From Stegostoma tigrinum (taxonomy: Eukaryota), in NCBI RefSeq assembly GCF_030684315.1, contig NC_081373.1:28497989-28561988 (forward strand): DNA of 64,000 bases, written 5' to 3'. The notes beneath the pieces are model-generated. The model saw only the letters and a list, made by a program, of their open reading frames with translations, was not told the DNA's origin and ran no database searches. Both the position numbers and the translations under genes were made by a program. Below, piece after piece: positions 5,411 to 35,799 of the stretch; within the stretch, counting starts at the first letter, position 1; each line of letters starts with the position of its first letter.

Positions 5411-6342
5411 TTAATTCTGCTTATGTTGACCCCGAGCAAAATGACAAGCAAAATCATATTTGTCTCTACATTTACATCCACATATGTTACATTGGAATGG
5501 GTTCTTGTAACCATGGCATCCCATGTGAATCGTATAAAGGATATTGTCTGCAAAATACATGTCACAGTGTTGGCAATGATGCAGAAGTTGGGGATCCTGG
5601 ACTTGAAGAGCAGGAGCAGGGGTGCTAGGCTGGCTGTTCGTCACGCTGGGTGTACTTGTATGAGCACTATGCTCACTACTGGGGCCAGCCACAGGACTGA
5701 AGTTCCGCTGATTTTGCGTGTGACATGCATCTGGACTGATAGGGGATGAGCTTTGGGCCACACTGGAAGCTACCGTGGAAACGACTGGAGCTGTAGACTG
5801 TGAGATCACATATGGTTTTTCATCCCTGCAGGTTACCACCTCAGGAGATGCTGGAGCTTGGTTTTCAGGTGGAAGGCTGGACAATTGGCCTGCTAAGGTA
5901 GAAAGCTGGTTTAATGGATTATCCACCATAATATCTTGCGTGTCCCTCGAAATCCCACCAGACTGTACTTTTTGCAAACCCTCATAGGAGTTAGCTGACA
6001 TATCATGAGAAAAGTCACTGAGGTAATCTGGCTTCTGTATCATCATGGAAGAAGGACTTAGATTAATCAGAAGTCTTGTCCCATAACTCAGGGAGTTGTT
6101 AGTTTTTTTCTGCAAAATGCCCAACATTTTCTTATTGGTCAGGCAGGTCCTAGCACCTTTCAAGGGAAGAAGTTTGTGCCTACGTCTACGGTGATGGGAC
6201 AGGTTACTTCGATCACTGCAGCAGAAAGAGCAAAGCTCACATTTGTATGGTTTTTCACCCGTGTGTGAGCGCATGTGTGCTTCGAGGTGCCGCTCATACG
6301 CTGAAGCAAACGGGCATAGGTGACATCTGTGGGGCTTCTCAC
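5411..6342 (-). CDS. IKZF5: IKZF5 copy A, last coding exon (932 nt; zinc fingers 2-3 and the two C-terminal oligomerisation fingers)
   Basis: Acceptor gatacag|GT GAG AAG CCC, reading GEKPHRCHLCPFASAYERHLEAHMRSHTGEKPYKCELC...HHCQHCDMYFADNILYTIHMGCHG...CNICGCKC..YDFACHFARGQH, with TAA at 5411-5413. Spliced CDS is 133+180+932=1245 nt, or 414 aa. Confidence 0.97.
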
Positions 6343-7958
6343 CTGTATCAGAAAGAATAGATCAGCAAACCTTGCCATTTTCTCTCTCTTTTTGCATTTT
6401 TCTCATTTTTCCTCCGCCAAGTAGCTTGTCCTTTAGCTAGGAGTGCGATAGAGCGGTGGAACTCTAAGATCACTGTCAACAATCCCATCTGGTTGTCAAC
6501 ATGGTTGCCATGTAAGAAGTCTGGATAGTTTTGTTTTTCTTTCCTCGTGGTGAGGTAGTTCAGATTTATGGATTATTTTCTGTAGTGGGTCAATTACAAA
6601 CTGATGAAACTCTACCCACGTAGCTGATGGATATGTGTCGATTGGATTTTTGCACCCTACGCACTATCACGTTAAAGGTCTGGACTTTTAGCTAACATGG
6701 AAAATGACGAGGTGACTTGAAATTATCTTAACTACTGAGCTACTTGGTTATCCGCCATCTGCTTTTGAATGAGATCTCATTAAAAATGTTGAGAATGAAA
6801 TATGTTTCCAATTGAAAAATCAACACAAAATAACTTGCCTCTTACAGGATGCATTTTGAAAATCAGAGGTGACAGCAGTTCCTGTATTTCCACATCATAA
6901 CATAATGTATATTATGGCTGCCATTCTCTAATTCCAAAAAACTTTCAAACATTAATATCAGAATAAACTGTTGCTGTTATATGCTGATTTTACAGCATTA
7001 TATATCCTACTTAGAGGAGCAGTACTGTACTATGCTATAGTTGGCTTAACCAGATGGTACTGAATACTTTAATCCTTACCTGCTTTTTCGTTAGTCGTGG
7101 CCCTTTTCACTTTAAACAGGGGAGACTCACCATCGGTACTCCTTTTAAAAAAAATCAAACTGTTACAAAGAATTGTGATCAAATTTAACATCCTTCAGTT
7201 TATGTGTTGTGAGAAAATTGGTACTTAAAAAGGGAGAACAATAGTTTCTGGAGAAATCCCTGCAAGAAGTCGATGTTCCTAAGTGACAGAACCTAACAGT
7301 GTGGAGAAACTGAAATCAACACCGATACCATAAAAACAACAGAAGAATCATTTACCTAAACTGAGTTAATGAATGTATCACAATGTCAATCTAAGTGCCT
7401 TACAGTGCCAAACAGCAAATGATCATAAACTACTTCCAACAATGAAGTTAGCACCACAACTTTAACCAAAGGAATCCAATACCGACATGGCAGAAAAGAA
7501 AAATTAACTGTATTTTAAGGGGGCTGTGATGGTGAGACTCCATTTAAGTCAATTTATGTTAAGGAATAGTTTTACACATCACACTCAATGAATACCACAA
7601 ACTTAACATCAACCTGGATGCTAAATGCCGCGGTCTGGTCTCAGTTAAAACTTAGCAATTTTGTAGAAATTATTCTCTTCATTAAAACAACATTTATCAA
7701 GAGGCAAGCTTGCCCCGAATCATACCACCAACCATCTCTGTACCAACCTCATTATCAAAATGAGTCAAAAGGTTGATTATCTCATTTTTAATTGACGTTC
7801 CAGGAATTTGGATTTGATACTACTGAGCATGTTCATTAAATTAGTGTGTTTGCACCTTATTGTTCAGTACTGCTCCTTTAAGTAGTTAGAATAGAAATAA
7901 ACATATTTGATAATAGCTTCTATTTTAGAACATGTGGAAGTCAATGTAGAGTCATTAC

Positions 7959-8138
7959 CTGTGTGCATTCTGATATGCTCCATCAGGCGTGCGGTCCCTT
8001 TACTAGCGTAGTTGCAGTATCGGCATTTTAGTTTTCCATCATATGTTCTTTCAAACCCGTCAGCCATGAGCCCAGAGCCGTCATCCAATGAAACTTCAAC
8101 TGAAGCATGATGGATTCCATTTTGATCATTTTCTGATC
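7959..8138 (-). CDS. IKZF5: IKZF5 copy A, second coding exon (180 nt; zinc finger 1)
   Basis: (G)SENDQNGIHHASVEVSLDDGSGLMADGFERTYDGKLKCRYCNYASKGTARLMEHIRMHT(G). Acceptor ctgcag| and donor G|GTAATG, phase 1/1. Confidence 0.95.
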
Positions 8139-10403
8139 CTGCAGTAATAAATCCCAAAAAGTGGGAAGAATTAAAAATACAATTCTCTGCAATTTGAAAT
8201 AAAGGCAGCTCCAATTAGAAGAGAATATCTTTTTAAGATGCAGGTGACACTAATGGAAATGTATTGTCATTCACAAATTATGTCAACTTTTCTACATTTA
8301 TAGTAAATATTAAGAGCTGCATGGAAGACACTTTTGAAAATCTGTTTTCTACTTCTACAAAAATTTCCTGTGGCATTTCTCATTGACAGTAAATATGCTT
8401 GTGTAAATCATTGATTCTGGAATCAAAGTCAAATTTCACTTTAACTGAATGTAATATTTAGTCAGAAAACCATTCTCAGACATAACAATATGCATTCAGC
8501 TAACACAAACAGATAAAAGCTCTAATGAGTAAAATGCCAGCACAGCACAGGAACCATAGATGAAAAAATATGAAGAGATTTTCTTTCTGTAATTGACTTT
8601 CCATTAAGACGGAGCTTGAATTTATATAGTAACTTCCTTGGCCTCTGAACATCCTAGAGTAATTAAGCCAATTAAGTACTCAAAGTATTGTAATTGATAT
8701 AATATAGAGATAACTTCGTCAATTTGTACGTAGCAAGGTCCAAACAGAAATTAACTCATCTAAGTGGCCTTTTTCTGAGGAATAAAATGATGGATAGTTT
8801 ACCTAGAGAACTGCTCTGCTCTTAAAATAGTGTGTTAGAATGTTTATGGCCACCTGAGAGAACAGATGGACCTTTAGTTTAATATCTCATCAGAAACATG
8901 GCACCAAAGACACAGCAGCACTTCCACCGGACTGGATTAACATGCTTGATTCTCGAGCCAGGTTTAAGTTCATGACGTGATTCAGATGAACTAGTATAAC
9001 CATTGAGGTAAGGCTAACAGTATAAAATTGATTTACACAGCAGCTTTCAACAAAACATATCACCTATGTATCAAATCTCCAATGGTAGTGCATGTAATAA
9101 AGTAGAATCTATTCTCTAACTGTATCTGTTTTATTTTCATTGTTGGTTGTCTCCTTGCCTCTCTTTTTCTGCCTGTTTCTCTCTCCTTAACTCTTTATTT
9201 CTCACTTTAATTTCCTTTGTTCCTTTCAGATGGTGGGTGGCATGGAGTGCTGTGGTAGGGTAATAAGTCATCAAAGGCCTTCAAATAAGAATTACACAGA
9301 AAATAAGGCTCTTACAACTTTCCTTCCCAACCCTTCCCTTTCTCCCCTTGCCCCACAATCACCCGTGCTCGTGTTTTCACATCGGAATTGTTCCCTGTAC
9401 CTTTACCTTTCCATACCCTCAGCAGCTTAACCACCACTTATTCTACGATCATTCACTTCATCCATAACACTTTGACCTATTGTTGCCCTCTTACTGCATC
9501 CCAGGATAGTTTGCATTGCCCTCAAATCCATTTTATCTATATCTTTCTCAAAGAGGCATCATTTTATATTTTGAAAAGGCAGATTCAAACAGAGAAACTC
9601 TTGTCTGTTTAACCTAAGAATCATCTTTTGAACTGTTAACAGCAGACAGTGAAATAATGATTTGGCTTCAGAATTCACCTGGAGTTGTTTTTGTTGAAAG
9701 CTCAACTATTAGCATGAGGAAGAATGAAAACAACAACCACAACAGGTGTGCACTAAGTACATAATACGACTGTAGTTGAATAAAGCTTTTGAAGTTTGTC
9801 CTCTAGGATTTCTTCAATTAATTAGAAAAACAACTGCAAGGATTTGAAGGAAAATACAATATGGAAGAATGAATTGGCCACAGAGTTTGGGAAACAAGTG
9901 TGTGCAGTGTCAAATAGTGAAAGACAGGACAAGTACCACATTAAAAGGTACATAACTTTCCAGGTGGGGAGCAAAATACTGGAAAAGAGTGCTGCAAAAG
10001 ATCAATAACAACCCTTCCTATGCATTTACCCCTCCAATACCTTTTAAATGTTTTAACTGCCTCCACCACTTTCTCTGGCAGCTCATACCATGCACATGCC
10101 ACCCTCTTGTCATTAAAACACAACCAGTAACATTATTGTTAATGAATGAATTTATTGAAAAATAACAGGCTAACGACACAAATTTTCAATTGCTTTTTGT
10201 AAAATCAGGCAAAAGGTTTTCTGATAGCCTGATACATTTTTAAGTTGTACAATCTATAATCTACGGTACACTGTTGGCTGGTTTGCTGCATTTTTCTTCA
10301 GAAAGCATTTAGTTTATTGAAAAGAAAATATTTTCGACCAATGTTAACTCTCCTAGCTTAGGTCCTCAAAGACAGACGTTTAATTCAGTTGAGTGGAGAT
10401 TTT

Positions 10404-10533
10404 AGAGATAATGGGAACTGCAGATGCTGGAGAATCCAAGATAACAAAGTGTGGAGCTGGACGAACACAGCAGGCCAATCAGCATCTTAGGAGCAGAAAA
10501 GCTGACGTTTCGGGCCTAGACCTCTCTGATGAC
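10404..10533 (-). mobile_element. Short Penelope-like-element terminus with target-site duplication, in an IKZF5-A intron
   Basis: Family core gggaactgcagatgctggagaatccaagataacaaagtgtggagctgga...gctgacgtttcgggcctagacc, flanked by gagtgga(g/a)atttt at 10391-10403 and 10534-10546. Confidence 0.7.
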
Positions 10534-10680
10534 GAGTGGAAATTTTAATTTGACAGTCCTGATTCAGGATTTCCTTTTTCTATGACTCTAAGTAACCGTA
10601 GCAGACAAGTCAGTCTGAGAGTGACATGCCAGTACTCACCATGCGCAAAACATAATTTTTGCATGTAAACATGACCTTAC

Positions 10681-10813
10681 CAGTTTGTAGAGATTCTGGG
10701 TCCTTCTCCACACCAACTGAGCCAGATATCATATTCACATGTTGAGTCTGCTGAGTGAGGTACTCCTGGAAATCCTTGACGAAGTCTACAGAAGCAGCTC
10801 TTTTCTCATCCAT
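10681..10813 (-). CDS. IKZF5: IKZF5 (Pegasus) copy A, first coding exon (133 nt)
   Basis: Encodes MDEKRAASVDFVKDFQEYLTQQTQHVNMISGSVGVEKDPESLQT, matching the IKZF5 N-terminal DFVKDFQEYLTQQ motif. Donor G|GTAAGG at 10680, phase 1. Upstream acceptor ttttttcaag| places the exon start at about 10847. Confidence 0.95.
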
Positions 10814-11957
10814 AATCTCTCAATGGTTCAAGAAATTGCTTTATTTCCTTGAAAAAAGAAAATACAACTTTTGAGGAGTACATTGTGAAGAACAACACTG
10901 AAATTAAATAAAATGTGAATGTTATAGCAATAGCATTTTTTGACAAATGCCTGATATCTATTTATATTTCAATTGAGGTGATCGAATGATTACATTTAAT
11001 TAACAGAACAGTACAACAAAGTTGCTCTGATGGAAACGTGAGGAGTTTTAATTGCTCAGTAGGAAAACCTAACACTACATAGCAGTATGGACTTAATATA
11101 GAGAACTGCTTCCTAAAACAGTTCTGTGAAATGATACTGAAGTGCTAACTCCCAAGTCTTTTTCAAAGCACATTTACATCAGCACAGAATCACATAAATA
11201 GGAAAACTAATTTATTCAGAAGCTTTGAAATCAGTGAAAACTCACTCAGCTGATATCACATCACTCCCTGTACATTTTTATGACTTGAGGGAATTGTACA
11301 AAGCATCAAACACTTGTAGAGTCCAAGCAACAGCACAAAATTTGTAAGAAACTGGTGTTCGCTTTATATAGCACTGATGGAATGGGTCTTCCTTCAAGCT
11401 GCTGGATGCATGTTCAGTTTCAGAGGTTAAGAGAGGATATTAGCTGCATTGTCGAGACCCAAAACAACATGTATGCTGTTAAGCTAGTTTGGAATGCTGA
11501 ATAAAATCTTTAAAAATAGTCTGGCTTCTCTGTATTCTTCTGATGGTTGTCCACTGTGTGCACACTAATGTCCTCACATCTGTAGTACCTGGTATAAAAA
11601 GACTGAAATGTTTACAAGCATCAGGTGCTAATTTGAAGCTCTAACATCCTGTAGATAATATTATACTTGCAATACTTACAGAACTGCATGTTCACTTTAA
11701 AACCGGTACACAGCTAAGAAAACATGCATCTAAAAGGGCACAAAATTAAGAACTGTGATGCTGGAAATCTGAAAAATGGGTTACTTTCAGCACAGCCAAC
11801 TAATTTTCAGCCATTCATAGTCCCCATCAACACCTATGTAGCTTTTCTTCTTCCATGGCTTACTACCAATAATCCTGACTTTCTTTCTCTTGCTGGGCTC
11901 TGTCTCCGCCTATTGGCGCACTCCTTTTCCTTCCGCCTTCCTTTGTCATCGAGATAA

Positions 11958-12620
11958 ATAGAATATAGAACATCACAGCACAGTGCAGGCCCTTCGGCCC
12001 TCGATATTGTGCTGACCTGTCATACCGATCTCAAGCCCATCCAACCTACAGTATTCCATGTACGTCCACATGCTTGTCCAACGATGACTTAAATATACCT
12101 AAGGTTAGCGAATCTACTACCATTGCAGACAAAGCGTTCCATTCCCTTACTACTCTCTGAGTAAAGAAACTACCTCTGACATCTGTCCTATATCTTTCAC
12201 CCCTCAATTTAAAGCTATGCCCCCTCACGCTCGCAGTCACCATCCTAGGAAAAAGGCTCTCCCTATCCACCCTATCTAACCCTCTGATTATTTAATATGC
12301 CTCAATTAAATCACCTGTCAACCTTCTTCTCTCTAACGAAAACAGCCTCAAGTCCCTCAGCCTTTCCTCATAAGACCTTCCCTCCACACCAAGCAACATC
12401 CTAGTAAATCTCCTCTGCACCCTTTCCAAAGCTTCCACATCCTTCTTGTAATGCGGTGACCAGAACTGTACGCAATACTCCAAGTGCGGCCGCACCAGAG
12501 TTTTGTACAGCTGCAGCATAACCTCATGGTTCCGGAACTCGATCCCTCTATTAATAAAAGCTAAAACACTGTATGCCTTCTTAACAACCCTGTCAACCTG
12601 GGTGGCAACTTTCACGGATC
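11958..12620 (-). mobile_element. 5'-truncated CR1/HER1-type LINE
   Basis: Minus-strand ORFs LYKTLVRPHLEYCVQFWSPHYKKD...RGHSFKL...WNAL. The tail reads atagaatatagaacat on the plus strand. Confidence 0.92.
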
Positions 12621-15600
12621 CAATCCCACTGCGGTGGATAGTGGAACTTGAATTCAAATAAAAAAATCTGAAATTAAGAATCTACTGAAGACAATGAAAC
12701 CATTGTCAATTGTCAAAAAAAAAACTCCATCTGGTCTGGGAAGGAAATCTGCCATCATCACCTGGTCTGCCTAAATTTGACTCCAGACCAACAGCAATGT
12801 GGTTGACTCCAATTGCCCTCCAAAATGGCGTAGCAGGCCACTCAATTAAATCGTTTTGTACAAAGTCTCAAGGAAGAGATGAAACCAGACAAACCACTCA
12901 CCACTGATCTAAGCTTTGGAACAGACAATGGCACAAACAGCTATGTCAATCTTGCAAAGTCATCCTTACTAACAACTGGAGGTTCGTATCAAAATTGGGA
13001 CAGCTGTCTCAGAGACTAGTCAAGCACCAGACTGACGTAAGTCATACTTATGGAATCATACCTGACTGTGTTCCAAACGCTACCATCACCATTCCTGTAT
13101 ATGTCCTGTCCCAGTGGCAGGACAGACCCTGCAGAGGGGGTGACTCAGTCATAGACAGTCAGAAAGGAATTACTGTCAGAGTCCTTAATATTGACTCTGG
13201 ACCCGATTATGTCTCATGGCTACAGGTTAAACACGAGCAAGGAAACCTACTGCTGATTACCAAGTACTGTCTTCCCTTGGCTGATGATCCAATAGCCCTG
13301 CCATGTTGAACAAAATTTGGAAGAAGCACTGAGGTGTCATGGATGCAATATGTACTCTGGGTGGGGAATTTCAACATCCATCACGAACAGTGGCTTGGTA
13401 GCACCATGACCAATTGAACTGGTCGAGTCCTAAAGGACACAGCTGCTAGACTGGGTCTGTAGCAGGTGGTGAGAGGGGAAAGACATATTTGACCTCATTT
13501 ACCAATTTGCCAGTGCTGATGCATTGGTAGGAGTGACCAATGCACAGTCCTTATGCAGGTGAAATCCTGCCTTCACACTGAGAGTACTGTCTACTGTGTT
13601 GTGTAGTTAAAACAATGTGCTAAATTGGACAGACTTCAAACAGATCTCGCAACTCAAGACTGGGCATCCATGAGGTGCTGTGCACCATCGACAGCAGTAG
13701 TGTTGTACTCGAACACAATCTGCAACCTCATGGTCCAGCATATCCCCTACTTAACCATTACAATCAATGGTTTAAATGGAGAATGCAGGACGGCATGCCA
13801 GGAGCAGCTACAGGCATACCTGAAAATGAGAGATCAATTAGGTGAAGCTATCAAACAGAACTATTTGCATGCTAAACAGCATAAGCAGCATGTGCTACTC
13901 AGAGCTAAGCAATCCTCCAACCAATCAATCGGGTCTATGCTCTACAGTTCTGCCACATCCAGTCATGAATGATGGTGGTCAATTAAACAACTCACTGGAG
14001 GACAAGGCTCCACAAACATCCCCAAAGTCAATGACAGGAGAGCAAAAGCTTAAGTGCAAAAGATAAGGCCAAAACATTTGCAGCTATCTTCGATCAGAAG
14101 TGTCAAGTGGGTGATCCATCTTGGATTCTTCCAGTGGTCCACAGCATTACAGATGCCAGTCTTCACCCAATTCGATTCACTCCACATGATATCAAGGAAC
14201 GGTTGGAAACACTGGATACTGCAAAGGTTATGAGTCCTGATAATATTCTGGCAATAGTACAGAACTTACTGCTTCCCTAACCAACCTGTTCCAGTATAGT
14301 TATAAGACTGGCAGCTACCTAATACTGTAGAAAATTACCCAGGTACATCCCCATAAACAAAAAGCAAAACAAGTCCAACCTGGCCAATTATCGCCCCCAT
14401 CGGTCTATTCTCAATCATTAGTGAAGTAATGGAAAATATCATCAACAGTACTCTTAAGCAGTGCTGCTCATTGGCGCCCAGTTTGGGTACGGCCCGGGCC
14501 ACTCAGCTCCTGACCTCATTACAACCTTAGTTCAAACAGGGTCAAAAGAGCTAATTCCAGAGGTAAGTTGAGAGTGACAGCACTTGACATCAACGCTGTC
14601 ATCCGTGGGGAGCTAGCAAATTGGACACAAAATTTGTTTGAAGGTGGGAGACAGAGGGTGGTAGTAGAGGGTTGTATTTCAGACTGGAGGTCTGTGACCA
14701 GTGATGTGCCACAGGTATCAGTGCTGCATCCACTGCTTTTCATCATTTATATAAATGATTTGAATGTGATTATAGGAGGTACAGATGTTAGCAAAATTGT
14801 TGGTGTAGTGGACAGTAAAGCCCAGAGTAAAACAGGACGTTGATCAGGTGGGAAATGAGCTGAAGAGTGGCATATGGAGTTTAATGTAGATAAATGTGAG
14901 GTGCTGCATTTGGGAAGGTAAATCAGGACGGGGCTTATACAATTAATGGCAGAGCCCTGGGGAGTGTTGCTGAACAAACAGTCCTAGGAGTGCAGGTGCA
15001 CAGTTCCTTGAAAATGGAGTTGCAGGTAGACAGAGTGTTGTAGATGGTGTTTGGTATGCTTGATCAGTGCATTCAGTGTAGGATCAGTTAGGAAAGCCAC
15101 AAGTTCTGTACCATTGCTGGAACATTGTCAGGGTCTGTAGCCTTTGCAGTTGCACCTGTAAAGGACATTGGTGAGGCCACTTTTAGAATACTACATTCAG
15201 TTCTGGTCTTCCAGCTATCGGAAAGATGTTGTTAAACCAGTGTGTTCAGAAAAGAGTTTCAAGGATGTGCTGGGATTGGAGGGTTTGAGCTATAGGGAGA
15301 GGCTGTATGGGCTGAGGCTGAATAGGCAGAGGCATTTTTCCCTGGAGCATCAGAGACTGAGGGATAACCTTACAGAGCTTTATAAAACTATGACGGGCAT
15401 GAATAGGGTGAATAGTCAAGGTCTTTTTCACAGGGTGCGGGAGTCCAAACCTAGAGGGCATAGGTTTAAGGTGAGAGGGGAAAGATTTAAAAAAGACCCG
15501 AGGGGGTGACTTTTTCATGCAGAGGGTGGTGCATGTATGGAATGAGCTGCAACAGGAGGTGGTGGAAGTGCATAAAACTGCAAAATTTAAAAATGCATCT

Positions 15601-16833
15601 CGATGGGCACGTGAATAGGAAGGGTTTTGAGGGATATGGGCCAAATGAGACTAGATCAGTTTAGGCTATCTGGTCTGCACGTACGAGCTGGACTGAAGGC
15701 TCTGTTTCTGTGCTGTTTAACTGTGACTTTTTGACTGAGTGAAGCATCATGGATCCCTAGCAAAACTGGAATCAATGGGTAAGAGGGGGCAAAGTCTCTG
15801 CTGGTTGGAGTCATACCTGGCACATAGGAAGGTGGTTGTGGTTTTTGGAGTTCAGTCAGTTCCTGGATATTTCTGCAGGTGTTCTGCAGAGTAGTGTCCT
15901 GGGCCTATCCATCTTCATCAATGATCTTCCCTCCATCATAAGGTTAGAAATGGGGTCGTTCACCGATAATTACACAATGTTCAGCACTATTCATGATTCC
16001 TCAGATATTGAAGCAGTCCATGTTCAAATGGAACATGGTCTGGACAATATCCAGGCTTGGGCTGACAACTGGCAAGTAACATTTGCACCACACAAATGTC
16101 AAGCAATGACCATCTCCAATAAGAGACAATTTAATCATGCCTCTCGACGTTCAGTGATGTCACGAACACTCTATCCCCACTATCAAAACACTTGGGGATA
16201 CCATGGACCAGAAAGTCAACTGACCTGTCACATAAACACAGTGACTACAAGAGTGGCTCAGTGGATAGGTATACTATGACGAGTAACTCATCTCCTGACT
16301 CCTCAAAGCCTTACGACCATCTACAAGGGCCGAGTCAGGATGAATACTCCCCACTTGCTTGGATGAGTGCAACTCCAGGAACACTCAAGAAACTTGACAG
16401 CGTCCAAGCCAAAGCAGCCAGCTTGCTTGGCACCACATCCACTCTCTCAACCACTGATCCACAGTAAACATATCTGCTACTATCTACAAGATGGACTGCA
16501 GAAATTCACCAAAGATCCTTAGATAGCAAATTCCAAACCAACAACTATTTCAATATAGAAGGACAAGGGCAGCAGATACTTGGGAACACCACAACCTGCA
16601 AGTTGCTCTGCAAGCGACTCAACATCCTGACTTGAAAATATATTGCCGTTCCTTCACTGTTGCTGGGTCAAAATTCTGGAATTTCCTCCCTACAGACATT
16701 GTGGGTTAAACTACAGCATACAGTTTGCAGCAGATTAAGAAGGCAGTTTACCAGTTTACCACCATCTTCTCAAGGGCAACAAAATGCTGGACAGCCAGCG
16801 ATGTCTACATCCCACGAGTGAATTTTTAAAAAA
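12621..16833 (+). mobile_element. Decayed near-full-length LINE (CR1/L2 group, second family) with AP-endonuclease and RT remnants, interrupted by a CR1 insertion
   Basis: Frameshifted remnants: GNFNIHH (APE, ~13365), KSNLANYRP (~14370), RVTALDI (~14575), QSSVLG..IFINDLP and WADNWQVTFAPHKCQAM (~15890-16110). A-rich tail at about 16828. Confidence 0.8.
14599..15727 (+). mobile_element. CR1 LINE fragment nested inside the older LINE
   Basis: RQRVVVEGC.SDWRSVTS.VPQ.SVL.PLLF.IYINDL, then VRPLLEY.IQFWS, RGHRFKVRG and the CR1 3' UTR. Confidence 0.88.
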
Positions 16834-18199
16834 AGGAGACAGTTCAGGAAGGTGGCATGGAGGTAGGTGATCAGCCGTGATCCAGTTAATTGATGGAAAG
16901 ACTTGACAGGTGAATGGCCTTCTCCTGTTCCTCTGACACAGACCTTACCTGGGGGCTAACATTTCATCTAAGCTGTGGAGTCACTCCAAGGGTCTGCACG
17001 TGCCAATCGGTGAGCTGATGCCACTTCCAGCAATGACTTCCAGATTTGGAAGTCACTGCTGTGTATGGATGCCAGAGGTTCTTGCAGAAGAAACTAAAAT
17101 GAGGGATTGTACTTGGGGACAGTCCCTGGAAAACAGCGGTATAGGATGCCTTTTCAGAACATCACTGTTGCTAGGTCTTCAGCAACATCATTTTTGTCCA
17201 AATGGCAACAGTGTGAAAATGAAATTAAATGGCGATTGCCAAATGGGAAGGCAAAGCTTTGATAACTACTTGTCTTCAGCTGGGACAACAGGGGAATAAG
17301 TGTCTTGGGAGAATAACATAGGGCAGTAATTATTGGTGCAAGTCACTTCTACCTTAATTTCCCCTATTTTACACTGTTCAAAAATTCCCACGTAACAAAT
17401 GAGTATAGATGAATATCGGTTGATATATAGCGGCAAACAAATATTATGTATTGCTCCTCAACACACAGATCGTAGAAATTAAGGACAGAATCTGTATGTA
17501 TTAAGTTTATTTTACACAGTGTGCATATAGACAAATAACATTTTTAATGTATATTGTAATATTTCATATTCTGTATTAACGTTGCTACGGTGTTTCTTCC
17601 CAGCCACAGTGCAACTGAACACAGGGTATAAAAACATAAGAAATGGTAGAGATGGATCATTTGGCTCCTTGAACCTGCCCTGCCATTCAACAGGATCATG
17701 GCTCATCTTCTAACTCAATTCCACTTTCCCCTGTGAGCTTGACATCCCATAATTCCCACAATATCCATAAATCTATTGATTACCCCTGAATGTACATATT
17801 GACTCAGCACCGTTCATTGGTGTGGGATTTCCAAAAATCCAAGATTCAGTGAAGTGCCTCATCATCTCAATCCTAAACAGCCAATCCCTTATTCTCCTAA
17901 AAGGAGAAAATAAGGCCATCAGCACCAACCGTGCCATGTCCCTTGAGAATTTTGCATGTGTAATTGAGAAAGCCTCAATCCTAAACTCGGGTCTAATCAA
18001 TTATTTCTCATAAAGCAATCTCTTCAAACCATAAACCTATTGAACCTTTATCGTACTCTAAACGAAAGATTCTAAACTATTCATTAAGACAATTGCGAAT
18101 GACGTTCTCTTATAAAAGTTGTAAAATTATCAGAAACTAATCTTTAACTTAAGGTGATCGCCTTTTAGAGACGAGCTTCTTGTTTCCAACAGGTTCCAC

Positions 18200-19200
18200 G
18201 ATTTCTATACCATTCCATCTGTAATTGGTTTTATTTGGAGGGAGAGCGACTGAATGCTAGATTGCCGGCTCTGTGGGTGACGGACATCCACCCGACTTTG
18301 TTCTCAGTGAATTGGACCCCGTTCACTTCTCACCGGACCGTGTTGAGAGAGGGGCGGAACCGCCGCCGGGCCTGCTCGAGACAATTGGTCAGTCAGGTCG
18401 GTCGCCGATTCCCATTGAACCAATCCAATGTCAATCACGGACAGTCAAAGCATCAGGTTAGGCTGCGCCGCTAAGGCCGTGTTGTGGATTTGAAAACTGA
18501 GGGGGAGGGGATTAAAACCGACTCCCGAAAGGATTGGGAGGGGGGTTAGGACAGGCAGAGGCCGGGTTATTCGAACCCCACGGAGTTGGAGGCGGACATG
18601 TCCGTGGATCGTTGGACCGTCGCGTCAAGCGATGCACCCGGACTCCCTAAATATATAACGTACACCTCATCCTCCTCAAAAAGAACACTAAAGCTGCATC
18701 TCATCTCGTTGCTGTGTCGGACCTGCCTACCAGCATTTATTTTTAATCTTATTGCTTCACTTACCCTCTAATTAATGTCTGCCCTGGAAACGTCGTTTAA
18801 CCAGAGTAACATCCCACTCGGGCTGGCGGTGGTGTGATGACCTTTTGAACGCGATCAACGGCATTGTCATCGACAGCGGCGGGGAGCTAATTTAACGGAT
18901 TTCCAATTTAAATTATTTTTTCTTCCGCCGAATCCTCGCTGGAAGATTGAAGCGAGCAACCGAACAAAAGCCAGAAGGGGTCAGAGTTCGGGAGGGAGGA
19001 ATCAGTGCGACAGCTTAACAAGTCCCCACGGAAACTGTCACCCTGGAAACCACAGCACCAACAGGGGCCAGTAATCATGGCAATGACTGACATCCTCACT
19101 TGTCAAACAGCAGAGAGAACCTTTAGATCACTTGAGGATCTTACCTGAGCTCGGGAAGGGTGAAATACTCAACGAAGGACGTGCTGGCTGTACAATCGAT
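18200..19200 (-). promoter_or_regulatory. CpG island, probable promoter and non-coding 5' exon(s) of IKZF5 copy A
   Basis: CpG/GC-rich island in AT-rich surroundings, with a GC box GGGGCGG (~18351) and several CCAAT/ATTGG boxes. Minus-strand donor-like sites AGG|GTAAGT (~18764) and CAG|GTAAGA (~19144). It lies about 8 kb upstream of the copy A ATG exon. Confidence 0.7.
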
Positions 19201-22200: not shown

Positions 22201-22334
22201 CAAGACTCATATTTCCCCTTTTATGAAGTACATGACTTGTGCTCATCACCCACCATCTCCTTTCTCACACTACATCCCAGCCCTAAAACAGCAGTAAGAT
22301 CACTTTGTCATTCAGCACACTTCACTGAGTTTTA

Positions 22335-22645
22335 GAAGATCATTGAATCCCTAAGTGTGGAAGCAGGCCCTTCGGCCCAACAAGTCCATACTGACCCTGA
22401 CAGCATCCCACCCAGGCCCATCCCCCTAAAACCCATCTAATTTACACATCCCTGAACACTACAGGCAATTTAGCATGGCCAATCCACCTAGCCTGCACAT
22501 CTTTGGAGGAAACTGGAGCTCCCAGAGCAAACCCACGCAGACACGGGGAGAATATGCAAATTCACACAGACAGTCACCAGAGGCCAGAATTGAACCCAGG
22601 TGCCTGGCACTGTCAGGCAGCAGTGCTAACCACTGAGCCGCCCCG
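22335..22645 (-). mobile_element. tRNA-derived SINE (HE1-like)
   Basis: Minus-strand head ggggcggctcagtggttagcactgctgcc...gggttcaattc (A/B boxes), conserved body tgtgcaggctaggtggattggccatgctaaattgcc, and a CR1-like 3' tail. Confidence 0.85.
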
Positions 22646-25600
22646 TTAATAAATATGCATACTATATAGTGGGGCTTGCCCACCTCTTAACCGACTAATT
22701 CTTCTCTTTCCACTCCCCAGTCACCACATATCATGTTAATACCCCTCCCTGATCCTCATGCTATCAATGGATTTGATTCCACAGCAGCCTGGATTATCTT
22801 ATTTGCAAACCCTTCTTTATAGTTTCCAATGCATTTAATACTGTAATTGACTACAACATTGGCATACAATGCCTCCCATCATCCAGTTTGATGAAATTGC
22901 CGTGCACAGATTTTATTCCCATTTTCTGAATGCACTCTGTATATGTTGAAAAACTGCATCTCTCCCTTCTCTATTTCTTGAATCCTATCCCCATCTGATT
23001 TGAGCAACCTTATTCATTATGTATATGAACTCCTAAACAGCCTCTGGCAGCATGTCCTGAATGAAGTATAGCCTACTTTGGTCCAAATCAAGGACAGCTG
23101 TTTAAGAATCTGCCACAAACTTAAGTCTCTTGACACCATCTGCATCCATGTCAGCTATTCTCAGTCTAAACCCTCTATTCGTAACCAATGTCTCATTTGA
23201 CCCAGAACTGTGCTTGAGAAACATCATCCATTCATCACCAACAGTTTTTCTTTTCATCTCCATATATACACACACCAGTAACTCAAATGCACTTTTCCCA
23301 CCATATTCATGCTCTTCTTCCATTGTTCATCTTTAATCAACATTTCCAAAATCTATCACATGGCCTGTTCTGCTAATACATTCTCTATTCCATAACTTCA
23401 TCACCTCCAAAATAACAACGTTCATTACATTAGTGGTTGGCCTCAGACAATCTCATTTATGCTATTTCCTCTAATTTTGTAAACTCTCCTGACTATCCCA
23501 TTGCTTGGAGTTTTATGTTCTGTGGATGTCAGTGGGTCTGGCAGCGACAATGAATGGAGAAGTAGATTTTAGGTAGAATCCAATGATACTTTACACAACT
23601 CAATCGATGCTGCCAGAACTGCTGAGTATCTCCAGCATTATTTATTTTCATTTCAGATCTTCAATATTGCACTATTTGGTGTTTCACTTTTGGGCATTCA
23701 TTTTTAATTGGGAGCAGCAGAACTTAATTTCAGGCCAAGATTTCTTTCAAACCTTCTTGACTTAACATTCATTGACTTACACACCTATTTTGAAACATTC
23801 TGGGATATATCTCCCTCATAAAGGGCACAAAATGCAAATTGTTATTTGGTACTTGCACAAAAAGGACTAACAGGTGATTTCAGTTCAAACCTTAGCTAAG
23901 CTACAAGATGATTCTTTTGGACTTTTAAATTTCAAAGTACTCTAAGGTTACAGGGAATATAAAACTGCACTACAACCTTGAAAGCGTTGCTAAATTACGC
24001 TCAGAGAAAAAGTGTTATAGCTTATGATCAGGACGTACCTATAATTTCAAGTTCTTAAAACTTCAAAAATTTTAAACAGCTTATATTTCAAAATGTAACT
24101 TATGTTGGGGGGAACATATGTAATGGGAAAATATGTCAGTAGTTGCACTGTATAACGACAGGTACAGATTCAGTTTGAACTACATTAACATAAATAACAA
24201 CAGTACTGATTTTGCTGAGATCAGTTTGCCACCAATGGCAAGTTCAACTGATAAACAATGTTATGCTTACAAACAATACTAGCAGAGATAACAGGCCATT
24301 TGACCCAAGAGGTTCATATGAACATTATGTTTCACACCCTTCCTCATTTAACACAATTAACATATCCTTGAACTCCTTTCTTTGCATGCACTTATACAGT
24401 TCTTACTTGATCATATCTATGTAATTATATTAACCCTGCACAAGTTCCACAACCCACTTTCTACATAAATAAGTCTCTTTTGAATTCCCTTTTAATAAAT
24501 GCAACGACTAACTTGTATTTGTGATCCTTAAATCTTGTTTTGCAGTTGAAAATATCCTCTTTGCCTTCTCTATTCAATGACATTCACAATAAGACCGCTA
24601 GTAGACCACTACACAAGTCTTTTCATTTCTTGGAAACAGAAGGCCTGGCCAATTTCAATTTTTCCTGATTGATGTAACCTCAGTTCTGGTATCATTGTAG
24701 CAGGTCTTTTTTTGCACTTTTTTAATTTCCTTTTTGTATTAAGACCAAAACTATTTACAATACTTAAAGTTCTGTACAAGTTTAAACATGTTCTTCAATC
24801 CTACCCCCCTTGAAATTAACTTTGATTTAACGAACAAAGCCATAAAAATTAATTTGTACATCTGCATCACTAGACTCCTCTGCTCATCAGGTTTTATCCT
24901 TATTAAAATATATTACCTTTCACTTAGCACATTTGTCATTAACATGCCCATTATGAAAGCTTATTCATATATTCCTATATTTTCATTTTTTCCACCATAT
25001 TAACAAGAAACATCAACATCTCACCCACAATTTTTGAAAATGTATTTCTGATACGAGTCAAAATTATTTAAACTAAATGGACCCTACACGACCCTTGTTA
25101 GAAAAATACTGCTGTATACGGTACTGCTAGTCGAAAGTACTAAAAAGCTATATCTTACATAGACTTAAGCAATATGTGCACACTTGATGTTAATATGCAT
25201 CCTCCATTTTCCAAGAGTGCTAGTATAATTACACCTGCTGTACTGCTATTGTAGAACAACCCAGACAAAGAACAGGCAAGTAGTGTAGAATAAACAGACT
25301 ATTATCAAGGATTTAGTTTATTCAGTATGGAAGGGAAAACAAAATTAAATCAAGCAGACCTAGGATGAAGTCATTACGTCAGGTGATAGGGTAATACAAG
25401 ATTCTGTTCAATTCTTTACATGAGATCCTGTTCTTCACCAGGAACAGTGGAAAAAGATCAGATATTTCCTAAGGAAATGCAATTTCAACTTTTCTATTGA
25501 AACCTGGTTGCCAGGCGATAACACTGGCAAACCAAGGAAGTAGCCCTCAGTAAAGATATGGTAGAAACTCAAATTATCAATACCAGCAAAAATAAGTAAC

Positions 25601-26829
25601 TTTACAGGGAGAAATAAGTACTTTGTACTGCTTTCATATTTAAAGCACAACTATTGAATGTCATGGATCTTTATATAATGTTCAGCAGATTTATTCAAAT
25701 GCTCCAGCCAAGAATGCTTCAAAATAATTCTTTTAAAAAAGTCACTGATTTCTGAAGAGAACTATATTATTAAAACCTTATATATATCCTTTTAAAATCA
25801 ATTTTCTATTTCCAAAGAGTAGCAATAAAATGCTGTAACTGGCCTCTCCACCCTAGGCTAGAAATTTAAGTGCGTTTGGAGAAAGATAAATTTCCATTCA
25901 AGTGAGAGATGATTGAAAACATGTGATGTGGATTGGATCCAACATGGTTGCAACGATAAATAACCGCACAAGCCAATTTGAACTTAAGTCACTTGAAGTA
26001 GGTACAAGGACTAGAGACGATCATTTAGCTACTCAAGCTCATTATTTTCCATTTTGTGACCTAACTCCACCTACCTAACTTTATCCAAAAACAGTCCCTC
26101 AGTATCTGTGACTTTTGGTTCCGAATTGATTTTGGTTTTAAAATTTACAATTCATCTAATGTCAACTTCTGAAGCAAAAAAACAGTTCCAAACTTTTGTA
26201 CTGTTTGTTTGTAATGGATTCATAACTTCATTTCTGAAAGGTCTGCCTGCAATTTAAAGATTTTGTTTTATAGTTCTACATACTCCAACTAGGTATTTAA
26301 AAAAATTGCCCTTACTGCTTCCCTTAATACCTTAAAGATCTTCTAGGATGATTTGACATAAACCACATAAATTCCAGAGGATGCAATCCTAGTAGATTAA
26401 TCCCACCTTACTTTAACTCTGGAAATCCAGGTTACCATTGTAATAAATATAAGATACATTCTTCCAAGGCTAATGTATGATCCTTGTTAGGACAACACCA
26501 AACCATGCATCAGCAATTTTAAGGAGAAATAAAATGCAGTAAATTATTTACTTGCTTAATTGACCTTTCCCATCAACACCTTTCTTCAATTTTAAAATAC
26601 ATTTAATAGCCTGTTCATGTTTTTAAATACATAAATGATAGGCAAGCAGTGGAGAAGTAATTAGGTCATTGGCAGTCTGGAAAATATTTTCAGTTTCCTT
26701 TTAAACAAATTAACAATTGATTAATCTAGTTTTTATTATAGTTTTACAAAGGATTGAAATGAAGTTACCATTTAATGAAACAAGATTAATTTGGATTAAT
26801 TTTTAATAACTTTATTAATACAAATAACA

Positions 26830-27758
26830 TTAAGTTTGCTTATGTTGACCCCTGGCAAAATGACAAGCAAAATCATATTGGTTTTTACATTTACATCCAC
26901 ATATGTTACACTGAAATGGATTCTCATAACCGTGGCACCCCATGTGAATAGTGTAAAGTATATTGTCTGCAAAATACATGTCACAATGTTGGCAGTGATG
27001 CAGAAGCTGTGGATCCTGGACTTGAATTGGAGGAGCAGGGGTGCTAGGTTGGCTGTTCGTCATGCAGGGTGAACTCATGTGAGCACTGCGCTCACTGTTG
27101 GGACCTGGCACTGGACTGAATGTTCTTTGACTATGCACAGGATGTCTATCAGGACTAGCATTGGATGAGCTTTGAGCCACACTAGAGACTACAGTGGTAA
27201 CTATTGGTGCTACAGACTGTGGTATCAGATATGGCTTTTCATCCCTGCATGTCACATCAGAAGATGCTGGAGTTTGGTCATCTTGTGAAAGGCTGGAAAG
27301 CTGGCCAGCTAAGGCAGAAAGCTGGTTTAATGGATTATCCACCATCATTTCCTGTACATCCCTTGAGATTCCACTAGTCTGTGCTTTTGTCAGACCCTCA
27401 TAAGATTCAGCTGAGATGTTATGAGAATACTCATCAAGGTAATCTGTTGTCTTCTGTGTCAACATGGAAGGTCCAAAATTATTTAGAGGCCTTCTTCCAT
27501 AGTTCAGGGAGTAGCTGGACTTTTTCTGCAAAATTCCCATCATTCTCTTATTGGTCAGTGACGTCCTGCGTCCTTTCAGAGGAAGTAGTTTATGCCTGCG
27601 CCTACGATGGTGGGATAAGTTACTTTGATCACTGCAGCGAAAGGAGCATAGCTCACATTTATATGGCTTTTCACCTCTATGTGAGCGCATATGTGCTTCG
27701 AGGTGACGCTCATAAGCTGAAGCAAATGGACATAGATGGCATCTGTGGGGCTTCTCAC
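26830..27758 (-). CDS. IKZF5: IKZF5 copy B, last coding exon (929 nt; zinc fingers 2-5)
   Basis: Acceptor catgtag|GT GAG AAG CCC, with an open frame through all fingers to ...FARGQHKQT and TAA at 26830-26832. Spliced CDS is 133+183+929=1245 nt, or 414 aa. Confidence 0.97.
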
Positions 27759-28448
27759 CTACATGACAAAAAACAAATCAGCCAAGTTATTATATTTTTC
27801 CTCCTAAACAATTGATATCTTTAAGCCAAACGTGAGAAGGTATCTCTCCTTCCAACTGCAATTTTATGTAAATATTACTCAAATTCCCAGATGATTCAGT
27901 GAAACTGATACTGATTGAAGCAGCAGAAAGCTTCAAGATTGGTCTTGTGCTTGCGCTGAGTTAGCTGATCTCAGTTCATAAAATACTTTAAAAGCCTGTA
28001 TTTCCAGGGGTGGACTGAGGGTCCAGAATTACTCTTCAATATAATTCAGAGACTCATGTTGGGAAATTAATGTATATGGAAATGTAAATAGAAGGCCAAT
28101 CAGCATGACCTGACATCTTAAAAAATTATAAATTATAAATATTTCATATTCCAGTTTCAATTCCATAGTCCCAAATATTAAATGGGACATTCATGGTCAG
28201 AACTGGTTCTATAAAAGCAGACTTAAAATGAACAGTGACCATTTGATCCACAGGTGAGTTATGTTTAAATGAAACCAACATAGATTATAACAAGAAACAT
28301 GTTACACTAAAATTAATAATTTCCTTAAAGGCAAAGAAGCCCCATGGGGAGGTTGAAAAGGCTATTATCTATTTTATACGTCACCTTTGTGAGAATCTTC
28401 GTATGTTGGTGATGGAACTTCACCCAAAAAAATAGGAAACCTAAAAAC

Positions 28449-28668
28449 GTAGGTAACGAAGCGGGGAGCTGGATGACCATAGTAGGCTATTGGGTATTAG
28501 AGGAACAGAAAATCTGCTGTTTTGGGTTAGGACCCTTCTAAAGAAAAAGGGGCCCTGACCCGAAACGTCAGTTTTCTTGTTCCTCTGATGCTGCTTGGCC
28601 TGCTGTGTTCCTCCAGCTCCACACTTAGTTATCTCTGACTCCAGTATCTGCAGTTCTTGCTATCTCAG
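28449..28668. mobile_element. Fold-back mini Penelope-terminus element with TSD
   Basis: Degenerate inverted arms around ~28545 (gagctggatga... and ...tcctccagctcc), flanked by cctaaaaac at 28440-28448 and 28669-28677. Confidence 0.65.
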
Positions 28669-32139: not shown

Positions 32140-32485
32140 AGAGATAGTGTCCCTACCTTTAAGCCAGGAGACCTGGTTCGAGTTCCACCTGCTCCAGAAG
32201 TGTGCAATAATTTCTCAAAACAGTTTGGTTAGAAAATGTGTATCCAGTGAACTTTAGGGCTCTTGTGATGTAGTGGTAGTGGCCCTACCTTTGTGCTTAG
32301 GGAGTTGGTTGAAATCCCACCTGTTCCAGAAGGCATGTTACATGTCTGAACTGGTTGATTAAAATAACTAATGAGGAACTTCAGAGATGTTATAGTGCAG
32401 TAGTAGTATCCCTACGTCTGGGCCAGAGATTCCAGGTTCAAGTTCCACCTTGTCCGGATGGAAGGCATCAGATGTCTGAACTCAT
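32140..32485 (+). repeat. Three tandem tRNA-derived SINE heads (~120-bp period)
   Basis: Three copies of tagtg(g)tagtgtccctacct...ggttc(g/a)a.tcccacctg.tccaga at about 32145, 32270 and 32395. Confidence 0.7.
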
Positions 32486-33198: not shown

Positions 33199-33381
33199 CT
33201 GTGTGCATTCTGGTATGCTCCATCAGTCGTGCTATCCCTTTGCTGGCATAGTTACAATACTGACACTTTAATTTTCCATCAACTGTCCTCTCCGGTCCTT
33301 CTCCTATCAATCCAGAGCCATCATCAAGAGAAACTTCAACTGAAGCATGGTGGATTCCGTTTTGATGATTTTCTGTCCCAG
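33199..33381 (-). CDS. IKZF5: IKZF5 copy B, second coding exon (183 nt; zinc finger 1)
   Basis: (A)GTENHQNGIHHASVEVSLDDGSGLIGEGPERTVDGKLKCQYCNYASKGIARLMEHTRMHT(G). Acceptor ttggtag| and donor G|GTAACA. Confidence 0.95.
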
Positions 33382-35666
33382 CTACCAAGTAAATTGGAAG
33401 CATTGATTAAGACAATTTCACAAATTTAAAAAAAAATGTTGTCTAAAAATATGAATACAAACTAAATACTAAATTCACTTAACAGGAGTAGTTCATACTC
33501 TACATATGTACATAAAAATACAATACAATAAATAGATCAAGGTCAGTGGCAAGGTTCTTCCGAAAATTAATTGTTGAAATTACAGTAAACAAATTGTGCT
33601 CCAAGCTATGTGCTCCATCATTCGATCTATGCAAGAATGAAATATGAACCCAACGAAGTTACACAAGACTGAATGCATGTGAAACAGAGAAAGCCAGCAT
33701 GCTATACAGAATAGCTAGGTGATCCCACAAACAACAGATTAAAGCTCTTAGTCCTGTCACATTCAGTTATAAAGAGGTATCGGACAACTGAATAACTATT
33801 AAGTATGTGGATGCCACGAACATCCTCAATTTCAATCATGAGGAATTCCAGAAAGCAAAAATAACCAGCCTTGGTAGTGGAGTGAATGTGGTTGAAATTG
33901 ACTGCAGGGTTAAGCACAACACCAATGTTGCAAATATTCTCATTCAGCTTCAGAGAGCTAACAGGGAAGGATGGATTCAGCAACAAGGGAATGAAATTTA
34001 TGGAGGGACTGAAGACAACATTTAACTGGAAGAAGTTTCATTTCATGTTATCCTGAATTTTAAAACACAAGCAACATGACAAGTTAGCATCAGAGTTAGC
34101 AGAACAGATAAGAGAGGTGGTGGTGAGAAAGAAATACGTGTGAACAGCTTACACGTTGAACCAGAAGTGTTTTGAGGTAGCCAAGAATCAATTATATGGG
34201 CAAGAACAACGAGAGAATCAATTTCAGCTGATTTCCTGGATTTGACTAGATAGTTAAGAAACTAAGAAACGAAGTGAATGTAGTAAGAAAACGTAATACA
34301 GAAGAATGGTATGGCCAACCATCACATGGGCTGAGATAAGTGAAATAGGATAGTTTACCAGTCAGTAAGGTGAAAGTTTGACTTAGCTAGAGGCTGATTT
34401 GGAACTATGGCTGATTCAAACATGAGATTCCAGGAATGATGTGCCAAGGAGGCAACAGGATGTTTAGGGACATGAAAAGGGAAGGCTGGAGAAAGGGTGG
34501 TACATTCACTGAAGTCTCAAAATAGAAATATTTTTAACATTATCTTCCCACATTGAAGTAGAAACAATGTGCTTAGTGGTTTGATTTGTTTTAATTATAC
34601 ACTAATAACTTAGTGGGTAAAGACAAGAAACAAAATGCAATTTGGATGAGCTAGGCGATAGTTCCATTTAATCTAGTAATGGGATGGAATAACTAGATCA
34701 CACCGAATTTCTGATCTGTGTTTATTAATCTTTGTAGGAATCTGGTTAGCAATATTGTATAAGGAATCTTGGAATTTAGCAACAATTGAACAGCAGAGCT
34801 CATGTCCAGATTCAATGTAGAAAGTAGTCGCAGATTATGTACTGAAAAACTGCTGGAATTCAGAATTAAAAGACATTACACCTAAAGCAAGAGAAGCCTA
34901 GAAAAAAATGTACAAATTCAATACACCTTCATTATCACACAGGACACTTTAAAATGTACTTCAGAGAAATACAAGATCAACTGCACATGAAAATCTTACA
35001 TTTCTTCACAAAAAAAAGTTTCTATCTGCAGACATATTGATTATGTACAAACAATTTAAAAAAAATGAGCAATGTAAATTGATTAACTGCTAATGTTTCT
35101 GAACTGTGGAAGCTCAAGAACAGGCTGTAATATTGTATCAATGGCAGCCCATCAAGCAAGGTAGAATTGCATCAACTAGGGACGCTGGCTTTTTACGTCA
35201 GAAAGACTCTTGTCAGCATGATATGATAGCCATTTTTAAAAGAGTTTTTTCCAAACATTATTTCCAAGGATTACAAAATATATGAGTTTGCATTTCATTT
35301 TTATCTACACACTGCACATTTGCTTAAAAATTACAAAAAAAATGTAAATATATTGATTTTTAAAAATTATCATCCATAGAATACTTTTCACAAGGTACAG
35401 AGAGAACAAAAATCAAGGTTTCCTTAGTTTTGGTGACTATAAAACCTTCGTATTTTGCTCAATGGTTGCCACATTGTCAAGAAGTGTATTATTTCCAGAA
35501 ATGTTTTTGTTGTTTTCAAGCAGATACTTCAAATCTGATATTTCAGACCACCATTTATAGTCAAAACAATCTTTCAGGCAATATATTAAACAATTGTTTT
35601 AATAGTTAAAAAATACTAACCAATAAGGAAATTTAAGTTAGTACAATGAACATTTTCTTTCCTTAC

Positions 35667-35799
35667 CAGGCTGAAGTAATTCTGGTTCCTTATCATTACA
35701 CACTGAACCGGAAATCATGTTTACATGCTGTGTTTGCTGAGTGAGATACTCTTGAAAATCCTTGACAAAGTCTACAGAATCATTTCTCTTTTCTCGCAT
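35667..35799 (-). CDS. IKZF5: IKZF5 copy B, first coding exon (133 nt; absent from the supplied ORF track)
   Basis: Manual translation gives MREKRNDSVDFVKDFQEYLTQQTQHVNMISGSVCNDKEPELLQP. Donor G|GTAAGG at 35666. Upstream acceptor ttttctctgaag| at about 35832. Confidence 0.95.

Follow-up and report, generated by a model that had tools for sequence, protein, structure and literature searches.

Pegasus (IKZF5) is the least understood member of the Ikaros family and is needed for human platelet production: heterozygous variants of the human gene give rise to thrombocytopenia, according to PMC13177390 and PMC7867147, and the human disease is described as dominant in PMC10291195, which also gives GNNTGTNG as the IKZF5/Pegasus binding motif. 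Its relatives IKZF1-4 (Ikaros, Helios, Aiolos and Eos) have four N-terminal fingers and a GGAA motif, whereas Pegasus has three N-terminal fingers; both have a C-terminal finger pair, which in IKZF1-4 mediates homo- and heterodimers (PMC13177390). In mitosis, the phosphorylation of Ser/Thr residues in the finger linkers inactivates DNA binding by Ikaros and Sp1 (PMC4359306).

Mammals, birds, gar and bichir have one copy of IKZF5 among the proteins listed, and teleosts and sturgeons keep two Pegasus genes, whose position on different contigs is consistent with whole-genome duplication. The premise of the original prediction that the locus is normally single-copy therefore holds for the former but not for the latter. 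John et al. 2009 are said to have described an extra Pegasus in teleosts, and we take the human gene order to be IKZF5 flanked by PSTK and ACADSB.

We analyzed a window of 64,000 nt of the zebra shark, Stegostoma tigrinum (NC_081373.1), to which all coordinates refer unless prefixed C24. Its minus strand carries two IKZF5/Pegasus genes in tandem, A and B, with PSTK and ACADSB as flanks; the stop of A and the ATG of B are the outer limits of the pair (Table 1). The two intact same-strand genes with identical exon phases that had been predicted are indeed present: each has a CDS of 1245 nt encoding 414 aa, introns of phases 1 and 1, GT-AG at every splice site, and five C2H2 fingers (three N-terminal, two C-terminal) whose zinc ligands are all intact. 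Both products are identical to zebra shark 'Pegasus-like' proteins of RefSeq (P0179 for A, P0134 for B), where the two copies are already annotated automatically. RefSeq also holds an isoform X1 of B (P0128, 437 aa), whose N-terminus matches the predicted translation of the upstream exon end.

Table 1. Features of the IKZF5 pair and its surroundings in the window
Feature	Position	Strand	Evidence
IKZF5-A last coding exon: ZF2, ZF3, Ser/Pro-rich middle, ZF4-5, stop (at 5411)	5411..6342	-	product = XP_048407403.1
IKZF5-A coding exon 2: ZF1	7959..8138	-	spliced contigs of runs X1, X2 bridge exon
IKZF5-A first coding exon; ATG 10813, coding 10813-10681	10681..10847	-	spliced contigs
IKZF5-A non-coding 5' exon, 5' end approximate	18765..18986	-	X1, X2 contigs; GT donor
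IKZF5-B last coding exon: RGEKP linker (T133R), R150Q, K404Q	26830..27758	-	product = XP_048406744.1
IKZF5-B coding exon 2: ZF1 with R85Q, T94I, I101T	33199..33381	-	
IKZF5-B first coding exon; ATG 35799, coding 35799-35667	35667..35831	-	
Upstream exon end, start of N-terminal extension of B isoform X1	40791..40827	-	translation match; donor
CpG island, candidate bidirectional promoter IKZF5-B (-)/ACADSB (+)	40750..42250	.	CpG statistics; inferred
ACADSB-like exon core, approximate	54380..54440	+	motif scan
ACADSB-like exon, approximate	62840..62940	+	motif scan

The PSTK/ACADSB synteny is present at the shark pair. PSTK exons lie at C24:28466401-28489624, and further ACADSB exons follow beyond the right end of the window, at positions C24:28570274 and C24:28606095, the latter with human ACADSB (2jif) as its top match (E 2.7e-21). 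Copy A adjoins PSTK and has its own CpG island, and B lies head-to-head with ACADSB, a candidate ATG of which (42182) is followed by a GTGAGT donor. The CpG island expected for each copy was found at ~18,000-19,250 for A and on the B side at 40,750-42,250 (CpG o/e 0.77-1.05). The non-coding 5' exon of A sits within the A island and is spliced to the first coding exon of A in record 1 of run X1 and record 7 of run X2. A search of sequencing runs listed no RNA run with the sequence. Both X1 and X2 stem from relatives of the zebra shark, and that they are RNA is only a guess. They contain individual contigs that span three exons of A, together with coverage of the last exon of B, in agreement with transcription of both copies in these relatives; the presence of A and B within one run does not amount to their presence within the same cells. 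A bin over part of the A island had no contig cover, to which we give no weight.

A and B are identical at 321/413 aa (78%). Their last exons differ at 73/308 positions (76% identity), close to the ~75% (72/288) estimated earlier, and the differences are concentrated between the fingers, as had been noted: identity is 121/186 between the finger clusters, compared with 83/90 and 57/62 within them, the latter figure being that of the C-terminal finger region. The dN/dS ratio is 0.15 overall and 0.03-0.04 in the finger clusters, below the value near 1 that had been named as a refutation. Outside the coding sequence, the lack of visible intron similarity was confirmed: the two pairs of coding-region introns share one 30-bp match at most, and the sole similarity between the long 5' introns is a repeat of high copy number (68% over 901 bp). 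Comparison of the A and B promoters yielded nothing beyond short chance-level matches, and that of the 3' regions only repeats or short chance-level matches.

When the genome was searched with the last exon of A, the sole two full-length matches were A and B; five other loci matched at 36-53%, in the C-terminal fingers alone, and we take them to be other Ikaros-family members. Among the homologues, all named matches are Pegasus/IKZF5, the remainder being unnamed or hypothetical. In both searches, then, neither copy corresponds to another Ikaros-family paralog.

Both copies are listed for 20/22 named chondrichthyan species, in which they mostly lie on contigs of the same length, often under neighbouring accessions. 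False duplications can give tandem copies, and one of the catshark A models bears a LOW QUALITY flag, but a synonymous divergence (dS) of 0.89 between A and B excludes both a haplotype and an assembly duplicate. Together with the unalignable introns, intact frames, low dN/dS, spliced contigs and orthologues of each copy in 20 species, it leaves next to no probability for an assembly artefact, a recent duplicate or a decaying pseudogene, a reading refuted by divergence, species spread and tree.

Trees of 56, 21 and 38 rows were computed on subsets of the proteins, with IKZF1-4 left out and Microcaecilia P0017 (broken ZF1) removed from the first; the lamprey outgroup came from a 50%-representative search that was otherwise swamped by multi-finger proteins. 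A and B were separated from bony vertebrates (100/100), and each formed a clade that includes the chimaera, with values of 100/100 for B and 96/76 for A. The grouping of chimaera A with elasmobranch A has weak support (96/76 and 88/76; not resolved in the quick tree). Zebra shark A is 86.7% identical to chimaera A and 80.0% to chimaera B, zebra shark B is 83.6% identical to chimaera B and 77.8% to chimaera A, and both are 70-77% identical to the single-copy IKZF5 of squirrel and gar, which has the same arrangement of three N-terminal and two C-terminal fingers. Since chimaera B groups with shark B, the duplication precedes the chimaera-elasmobranch split (~421 Ma); the old tandem duplication that had been proposed is thus common to sharks, rays and chimaera.

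The claim that it is specific to chondrichthyans fared less clearly. In the best tree rooted on cyclostomes (lamprey and hagfish), A and B form a clade (96/100) with bony vertebrates outside it, so that a chondrichthyan-only origin is favoured but not proven: A+bony and B+bony both survive AU tests (p-AU 0.24 each; delta lnL 2.8). The duplication might instead be older than the cartilaginous/bony split, with one copy, most simply B, lost by bony vertebrates, in which case sharks would display the ancestral jawed-vertebrate state. Some room for this history is left by the great distance to the cyclostome outgroups (branches of 0.5-0.9), by an A stem of only about 0.01 and by polarised sites that discriminate weakly between the groupings (A+B 5, A+bony 2, B+bony 3); we nevertheless hold it to be improbable, because it goes against the best rooted tree, requires an extra loss and finds no echo in the linker of B described below, which occurs in 0/319 non-B sequences (coelacanth and lungfish are not named in the lists). 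Moreover, the additional copies of teleosts group in a clade separate from B, as do the sturgeon copies. The fast teleost copy was considered as a B orthologue and rejected on account of its separate clade in the quick tree.

The two copies diverged asymmetrically, a feature absent from the original prediction. Eighteen changes map to the stem of B and two to that of A (p=0.0004), one of the two A sites (286) being ambiguous. In relative-rate tests B was faster at p<0.05 in 11/14 comparisons, the three without significance being the two that involve skates and one that involves a sawshark, and polarisation against cyclostomes gave 14 B-derived and 4 A-derived sites. The substitutions include R85Q, T94I, I101T, T133R, R150Q and K404Q in B and R146C in A, none of which is found in tetrapod or non-teleost ray-finned IKZF5 (residues 85, 94, 133 and 150 in human numbering). 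T133R converts the ZF2-ZF3 linker from TGEKP to RGEKP in every B sequence and breaks the rule of Ser/Thr at the first position, which marks canonical multi-C2H2 proteins with phospho-regulated linkers, whereas linker 1 of B and both linkers of A are TGEKP. Arg is found in linker 2 of 39/358 Pegasus-like sequences, all of them chondrichthyan B where listed, and Thr in the other 319; teleost and sturgeon copies keep TGEKP. T94, T133 and R150 are present in lamprey and hagfish. The B changes strike sites that do not vary between hagfish and mammals, and 19-20 B proteins have since held the new residues invariant; across 20 B proteins, 78/83 columns of ZF1-3 are invariant.

By contrast, the canonical base-reading positions -1, +2, +3 and +6 of ZF1-3 are the same in both copies and in tetrapod and non-teleost ray-finned IKZF5. 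Binding of GNNTGTNG by both A and B is therefore predicted, if indirectly. In human numbering, Y121 occupies position -1 of ZF2, which matches the patient variant Y121F (PMC12461113). The +1 residue is altered in B in ZF1 (T94I) and ZF3 (R150Q).

We consider it probable that a whole-gene tandem duplication in the cartilaginous-fish stem was followed by asymmetric divergence, in which A would have stayed near the ancestral protein while B underwent a burst of changes, was then frozen, and became a retuned partner in DNA holding and regulation. A is the conservative copy, although B holds the promoter apparently shared with ACADSB. As judged from the fingers, B is most likely retuned in affinity, cofactors or mitotic phospho-control rather than endowed with a new DNA specificity: linker 2 has lost a Thr that serves as helix cap and mitotic phosphosite in other C2H2 proteins and gained an Arg. 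Given the near-identity of the C-terminal fingers, through which Pegasus self-associates, the hetero-oligomers of the original prediction are plausible: in cells that express both copies, A would probably associate with B, and B could tune how tightly Pegasus complexes bind, their dose or their release in the cell cycle. A complex prediction that paired the C-terminal fingers of A and B in the presence of zinc, run without alignments, scored 0.59 (control 0.41) and carries no weight either way; no Pegasus structure was among the best 60 of 66 PDB matches. Linker 1 of B keeps its Thr, so that mitotic release could still work, which counts against the retuning of B.

Alternatively, the promoters may have split or doubled an ancestral expression (regulatory subfunctionalisation or dosage), the B changes being near-neutral and fixed in a short relaxed phase. 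The absence of detectable promoter similarity, the shared base contacts and the nearly equal net charge of ZF1-3 (K+R 20 vs 21) fit such a history, as does the dominance of the human disease (PMC10291195), which is compatible with dose sensitivity. We nonetheless regard it as unlikely, because changes at sites invariant from hagfish to mammals were then held for >400 My, a freezing not expected from relaxation alone.

In a bolder version of the retuning of B, one that we rate as a long shot, Pegasus-B would be a sixth Ikaros-family protein that, through loss of the linker-2 phospho-switch, stays on mitotic chromatin itself or retains Pegasus-A there by way of mixed oligomers; if true, a thrombocyte regulator would have a bookmarking variant that arose in nature and has been fixed for >420 My.

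The pair is a new paralog in a known family, not a new kind of system, and asymmetrically diverged tandem transcription-factor duplicates are a well-known class. A full-text literature search found no paper on a shark IKZF5 duplication among the papers listed, though earlier work on Ikaros-family evolution could mention the pair; the elephant shark supplement text gave no match, and 'Pegasus' in the whale shark paper is a computer cluster, not the gene. Shark work on one 'IKZF5' may concern either copy. Kept for >400 My and with one copy altered at DNA-binding-domain sites that are otherwise constant, the pair amounts to an experiment of nature in the mutagenesis of residues 85, 94, 133 and 150. 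In the fast teleost copy, ZF1 residues 85 and 94 are also altered (R85S, then T94M); if the proposal for B is true, these parallel changes would mark a recurrent route for retuning spare Pegasus copies.

By a six-frame finger scan of the window, two sets of five C2H2 fingers were recognized on the minus strand; aligned against itself, the DNA yielded three exon pairs with 76-80% identity. The spliced frames, whose intron phases are equal, bear out the original prediction of two intact, tandem, same-strand Pegasus paralogs with 414-aa products: IKZF5-A (A), on the PSTK side, and IKZF5-B (B), on the ACADSB side. The proteins are identical at 321 of 413 residues (dN 0.132, dS 0.887), and their dN/dS of 0.149 (0.03 in the N-terminal DNA-binding fingers ZF1-3, 0.35 in the middle and 0.04 in the C-terminal fingers ZF4-5) agrees with the purifying selection then proposed. 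As also anticipated, introns lack visible similarity: between A and B, introns and promoters gave no alignment except repeats. A search of the assembly (GCF_030684315.1) returned no third full-length copy. Judged by architecture, sequence and synteny, A and B are bona fide Pegasus genes. They match RefSeq XP_048407403.1 (A) and XP_048406744.1 (B) letter for letter, both titled zebra shark 'zinc finger protein Pegasus-like', and thus were already annotated automatically, without distinct names. A full-text literature search, with most subscription papers beyond its reach (including the two Ikaros-family evolution papers likeliest to mention it), found no description of a chondrichthyan Pegasus pair. 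With this pair, a known family gains a new paralog that arose by a known process.

Features of the window (window positions)
Feature	Position	Strand	Details
A coding frame	10813-5411	-	1245 nt, 414 aa, GT-AG splicing
B coding frame	35799-26830	-	1245 nt, 414 aa, GT-AG splicing
Blocks joined by X1 and X2 contigs	18764-18986, 10680-10846, 7957-8137		both introns skipped
Candidate ACADSB first exon	from 42182	+	
Open frame upstream of B ATG	40791-40827, 35800-35831	-	
5'-intron repeat	14841-15714, 38382-39200		68% over 901 bp
Palindromic elements	52118-52405, 61951-62132, 28451-28634		180-290 bp, 70-88% self-complementary
Decayed LINE reverse-transcriptase-like fragments	57418-58795, 11959-12809, 1245-1634		translations judged by eye

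Exons of PSTK are found 8-32 kb to the left of the window, and those of ACADSB extend from within the window to 44 kb or more beyond its right edge. Both sets are on the plus strand, which makes the order PSTK(+), A(-), B(-), ACADSB(+). The candidate first exon of ACADSB probably begins in a CpG island shared with the 5' end of B, so that the head-to-head promoter of single-copy mammalian IKZF5 seems to have its counterpart at B; A uses a separate CpG island at 18-19 kb. Through the open frame upstream of the B ATG, RefSeq isoforms of zebra shark (protein P0128) and chimaera (P0004) have an N-terminal extension, with a short stretch common to both; A has an in-frame stop just upstream of its ATG. 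In predicted isoforms of chimaera A (P0006, P0198) and a frog protein (P0014), extra sequence is inserted in linker 1 (ZF1-ZF2), where an intron splits it, so that ZF1 would be uncoupled from ZF2-3. Both copies have a related repeat, similarly oriented, in their long 5' intron; since it is high-copy in the examined runs, two independent insertions are probable.

No RNA run containing the window stretch is on record. Contigs from four related-organism runs, guessed to be RNA, were aligned to positions 7900-27899. In each of runs X1 and X2, which come from different studies and different organisms, a single contig spans the three blocks tabulated above, which defines a non-coding first exon for A. 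The last exon of B was covered in all four runs at 96-98% identity, its splice joints lying outside the aligned interval. As A and B contigs occur in the same runs, both genes can occur in one sample, though not necessarily in the same cells. Logan contigs of 1.4-2.0 kb encode unnamed 414-aa proteins, five of B type and one of A type, which suggests that skate-like animals make spliced mRNA from both genes.

The pair is real, and older and wider-spread than a single window reveals: cluster listings place both copies in at least 20 of 22 named chondrichthyan species, and the other two, both Scyliorhinus, have at least one copy each among the cluster members listed. In a 56-row tree, chimaera B grouped with elasmobranch B (100/100), chimaera A with elasmobranch A (96/76), and A+B apart from bony vertebrates (100/100). 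The duplication, rightly thought to be old, therefore predates the holocephalan-elasmobranch split, dated to 421 Ma in PMC3692497. Its supposed chondrichthyan specificity is less settled: when the tree was rooted on Pegasus of lamprey and hagfish, the A+B clade was recovered (96/100), but constraining A or B to group with bony vertebrates cost just 2.8 log units (p-AU 0.24). Neither coelacanth nor lungfish appeared by name among the sequences listed. An origin in the shark lineage is the simpler explanation, though short of proof.

Stem changes (states common to elasmobranchs and chimaera within one copy, unlike bony vertebrates) number 18 on B versus 2 on A (p=0.0004), and pairwise rate tests found B faster in 11 of 14 comparisons, skate being the main exception. 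The DNA-binding domain carries R85Q, T94I, I101T, T133R and R150Q in B and R146C in A (residues numbered as in P0013, a mammalian protein of 419 aa); because lamprey and hagfish have T94, T133, R146 and R150, the changed states at these four sites are derived. Across 20 B proteins, 78 of 83 ZF1-3 columns are invariant. Read from these comparisons, B underwent a burst of changes, then a freeze. Arg in linker 2 (ZF2-ZF3) occurs in 39 of 358 Pegasus-like sequences examined, every one a B, and Thr in linker 1 in 314 of 314. Single B proteins of Rhinoraja (P0142) and Amblyraja (P0003) show a residue typical of A (C146; a Met within the basic tail that follows ZF3), which points to homoplasy or to gene conversion acting locally between A and B.

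The assumption that IKZF5 is normally single-copy is too broad, since teleosts and sturgeons also carry two Pegasus genes, on different contigs whereas the shark copies are in tandem. The fast teleost copy (P0044, P0056, P0068, P0088, P0090, P0113, P0077, P0120, P0436) forms a clade separate from shark B. The same two ZF1 sites are altered in it: residues 85 and 94 changed stepwise, R85S then T94M, pike and whitefish having S/T and acanthomorphs S/M, and one knifefish protein has H/V. This parallel reflects either convergence or a shared tolerance at both sites after duplication.

Positions -1, +2, +3 and +6 of ZF1-3 are identical in A, B, mammals and cyclostomes, so that the standard C2H2 recognition model predicts the same DNA motif for A and B. 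Residues at +1 and in the linkers influence contacts with the backbone and how the fingers lock onto DNA; T94I and R150Q of B both occupy +1. As judged from its residues, linker 2 of B (RGEKP, TGEKP in A) cannot be phosphorylated and gains a positive charge, the linker 1 site being kept. A human disease variant, reportedly described by Lentaigne in 2019, affects G134, adjoining residue 133. PMC4359306 states that C2H2 linkers, most of which begin with Ser/Thr, are required for stable binding, and that their mitotic phosphorylation, by TOPK/PBK, inactivates Ikaros and Sp1 binding. IKZF proteins oligomerise via the C-terminal fingers, according to PMC13177390; as these are nearly alike in A and B, mixed A/B oligomers may reasonably be expected. 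Against the main rival, that the pair was kept purely by regulation or dosage, the best reading is that A would be the conservative copy and B its retuned partner, and the pair supplies a sharp test at residue 133.

Elsewhere, the window contains decayed LINE-like fragments and palindromic elements, the latter composed of a short repeat family present at ~10 window places and possibly MITE-like or head-to-head SINE pairs.
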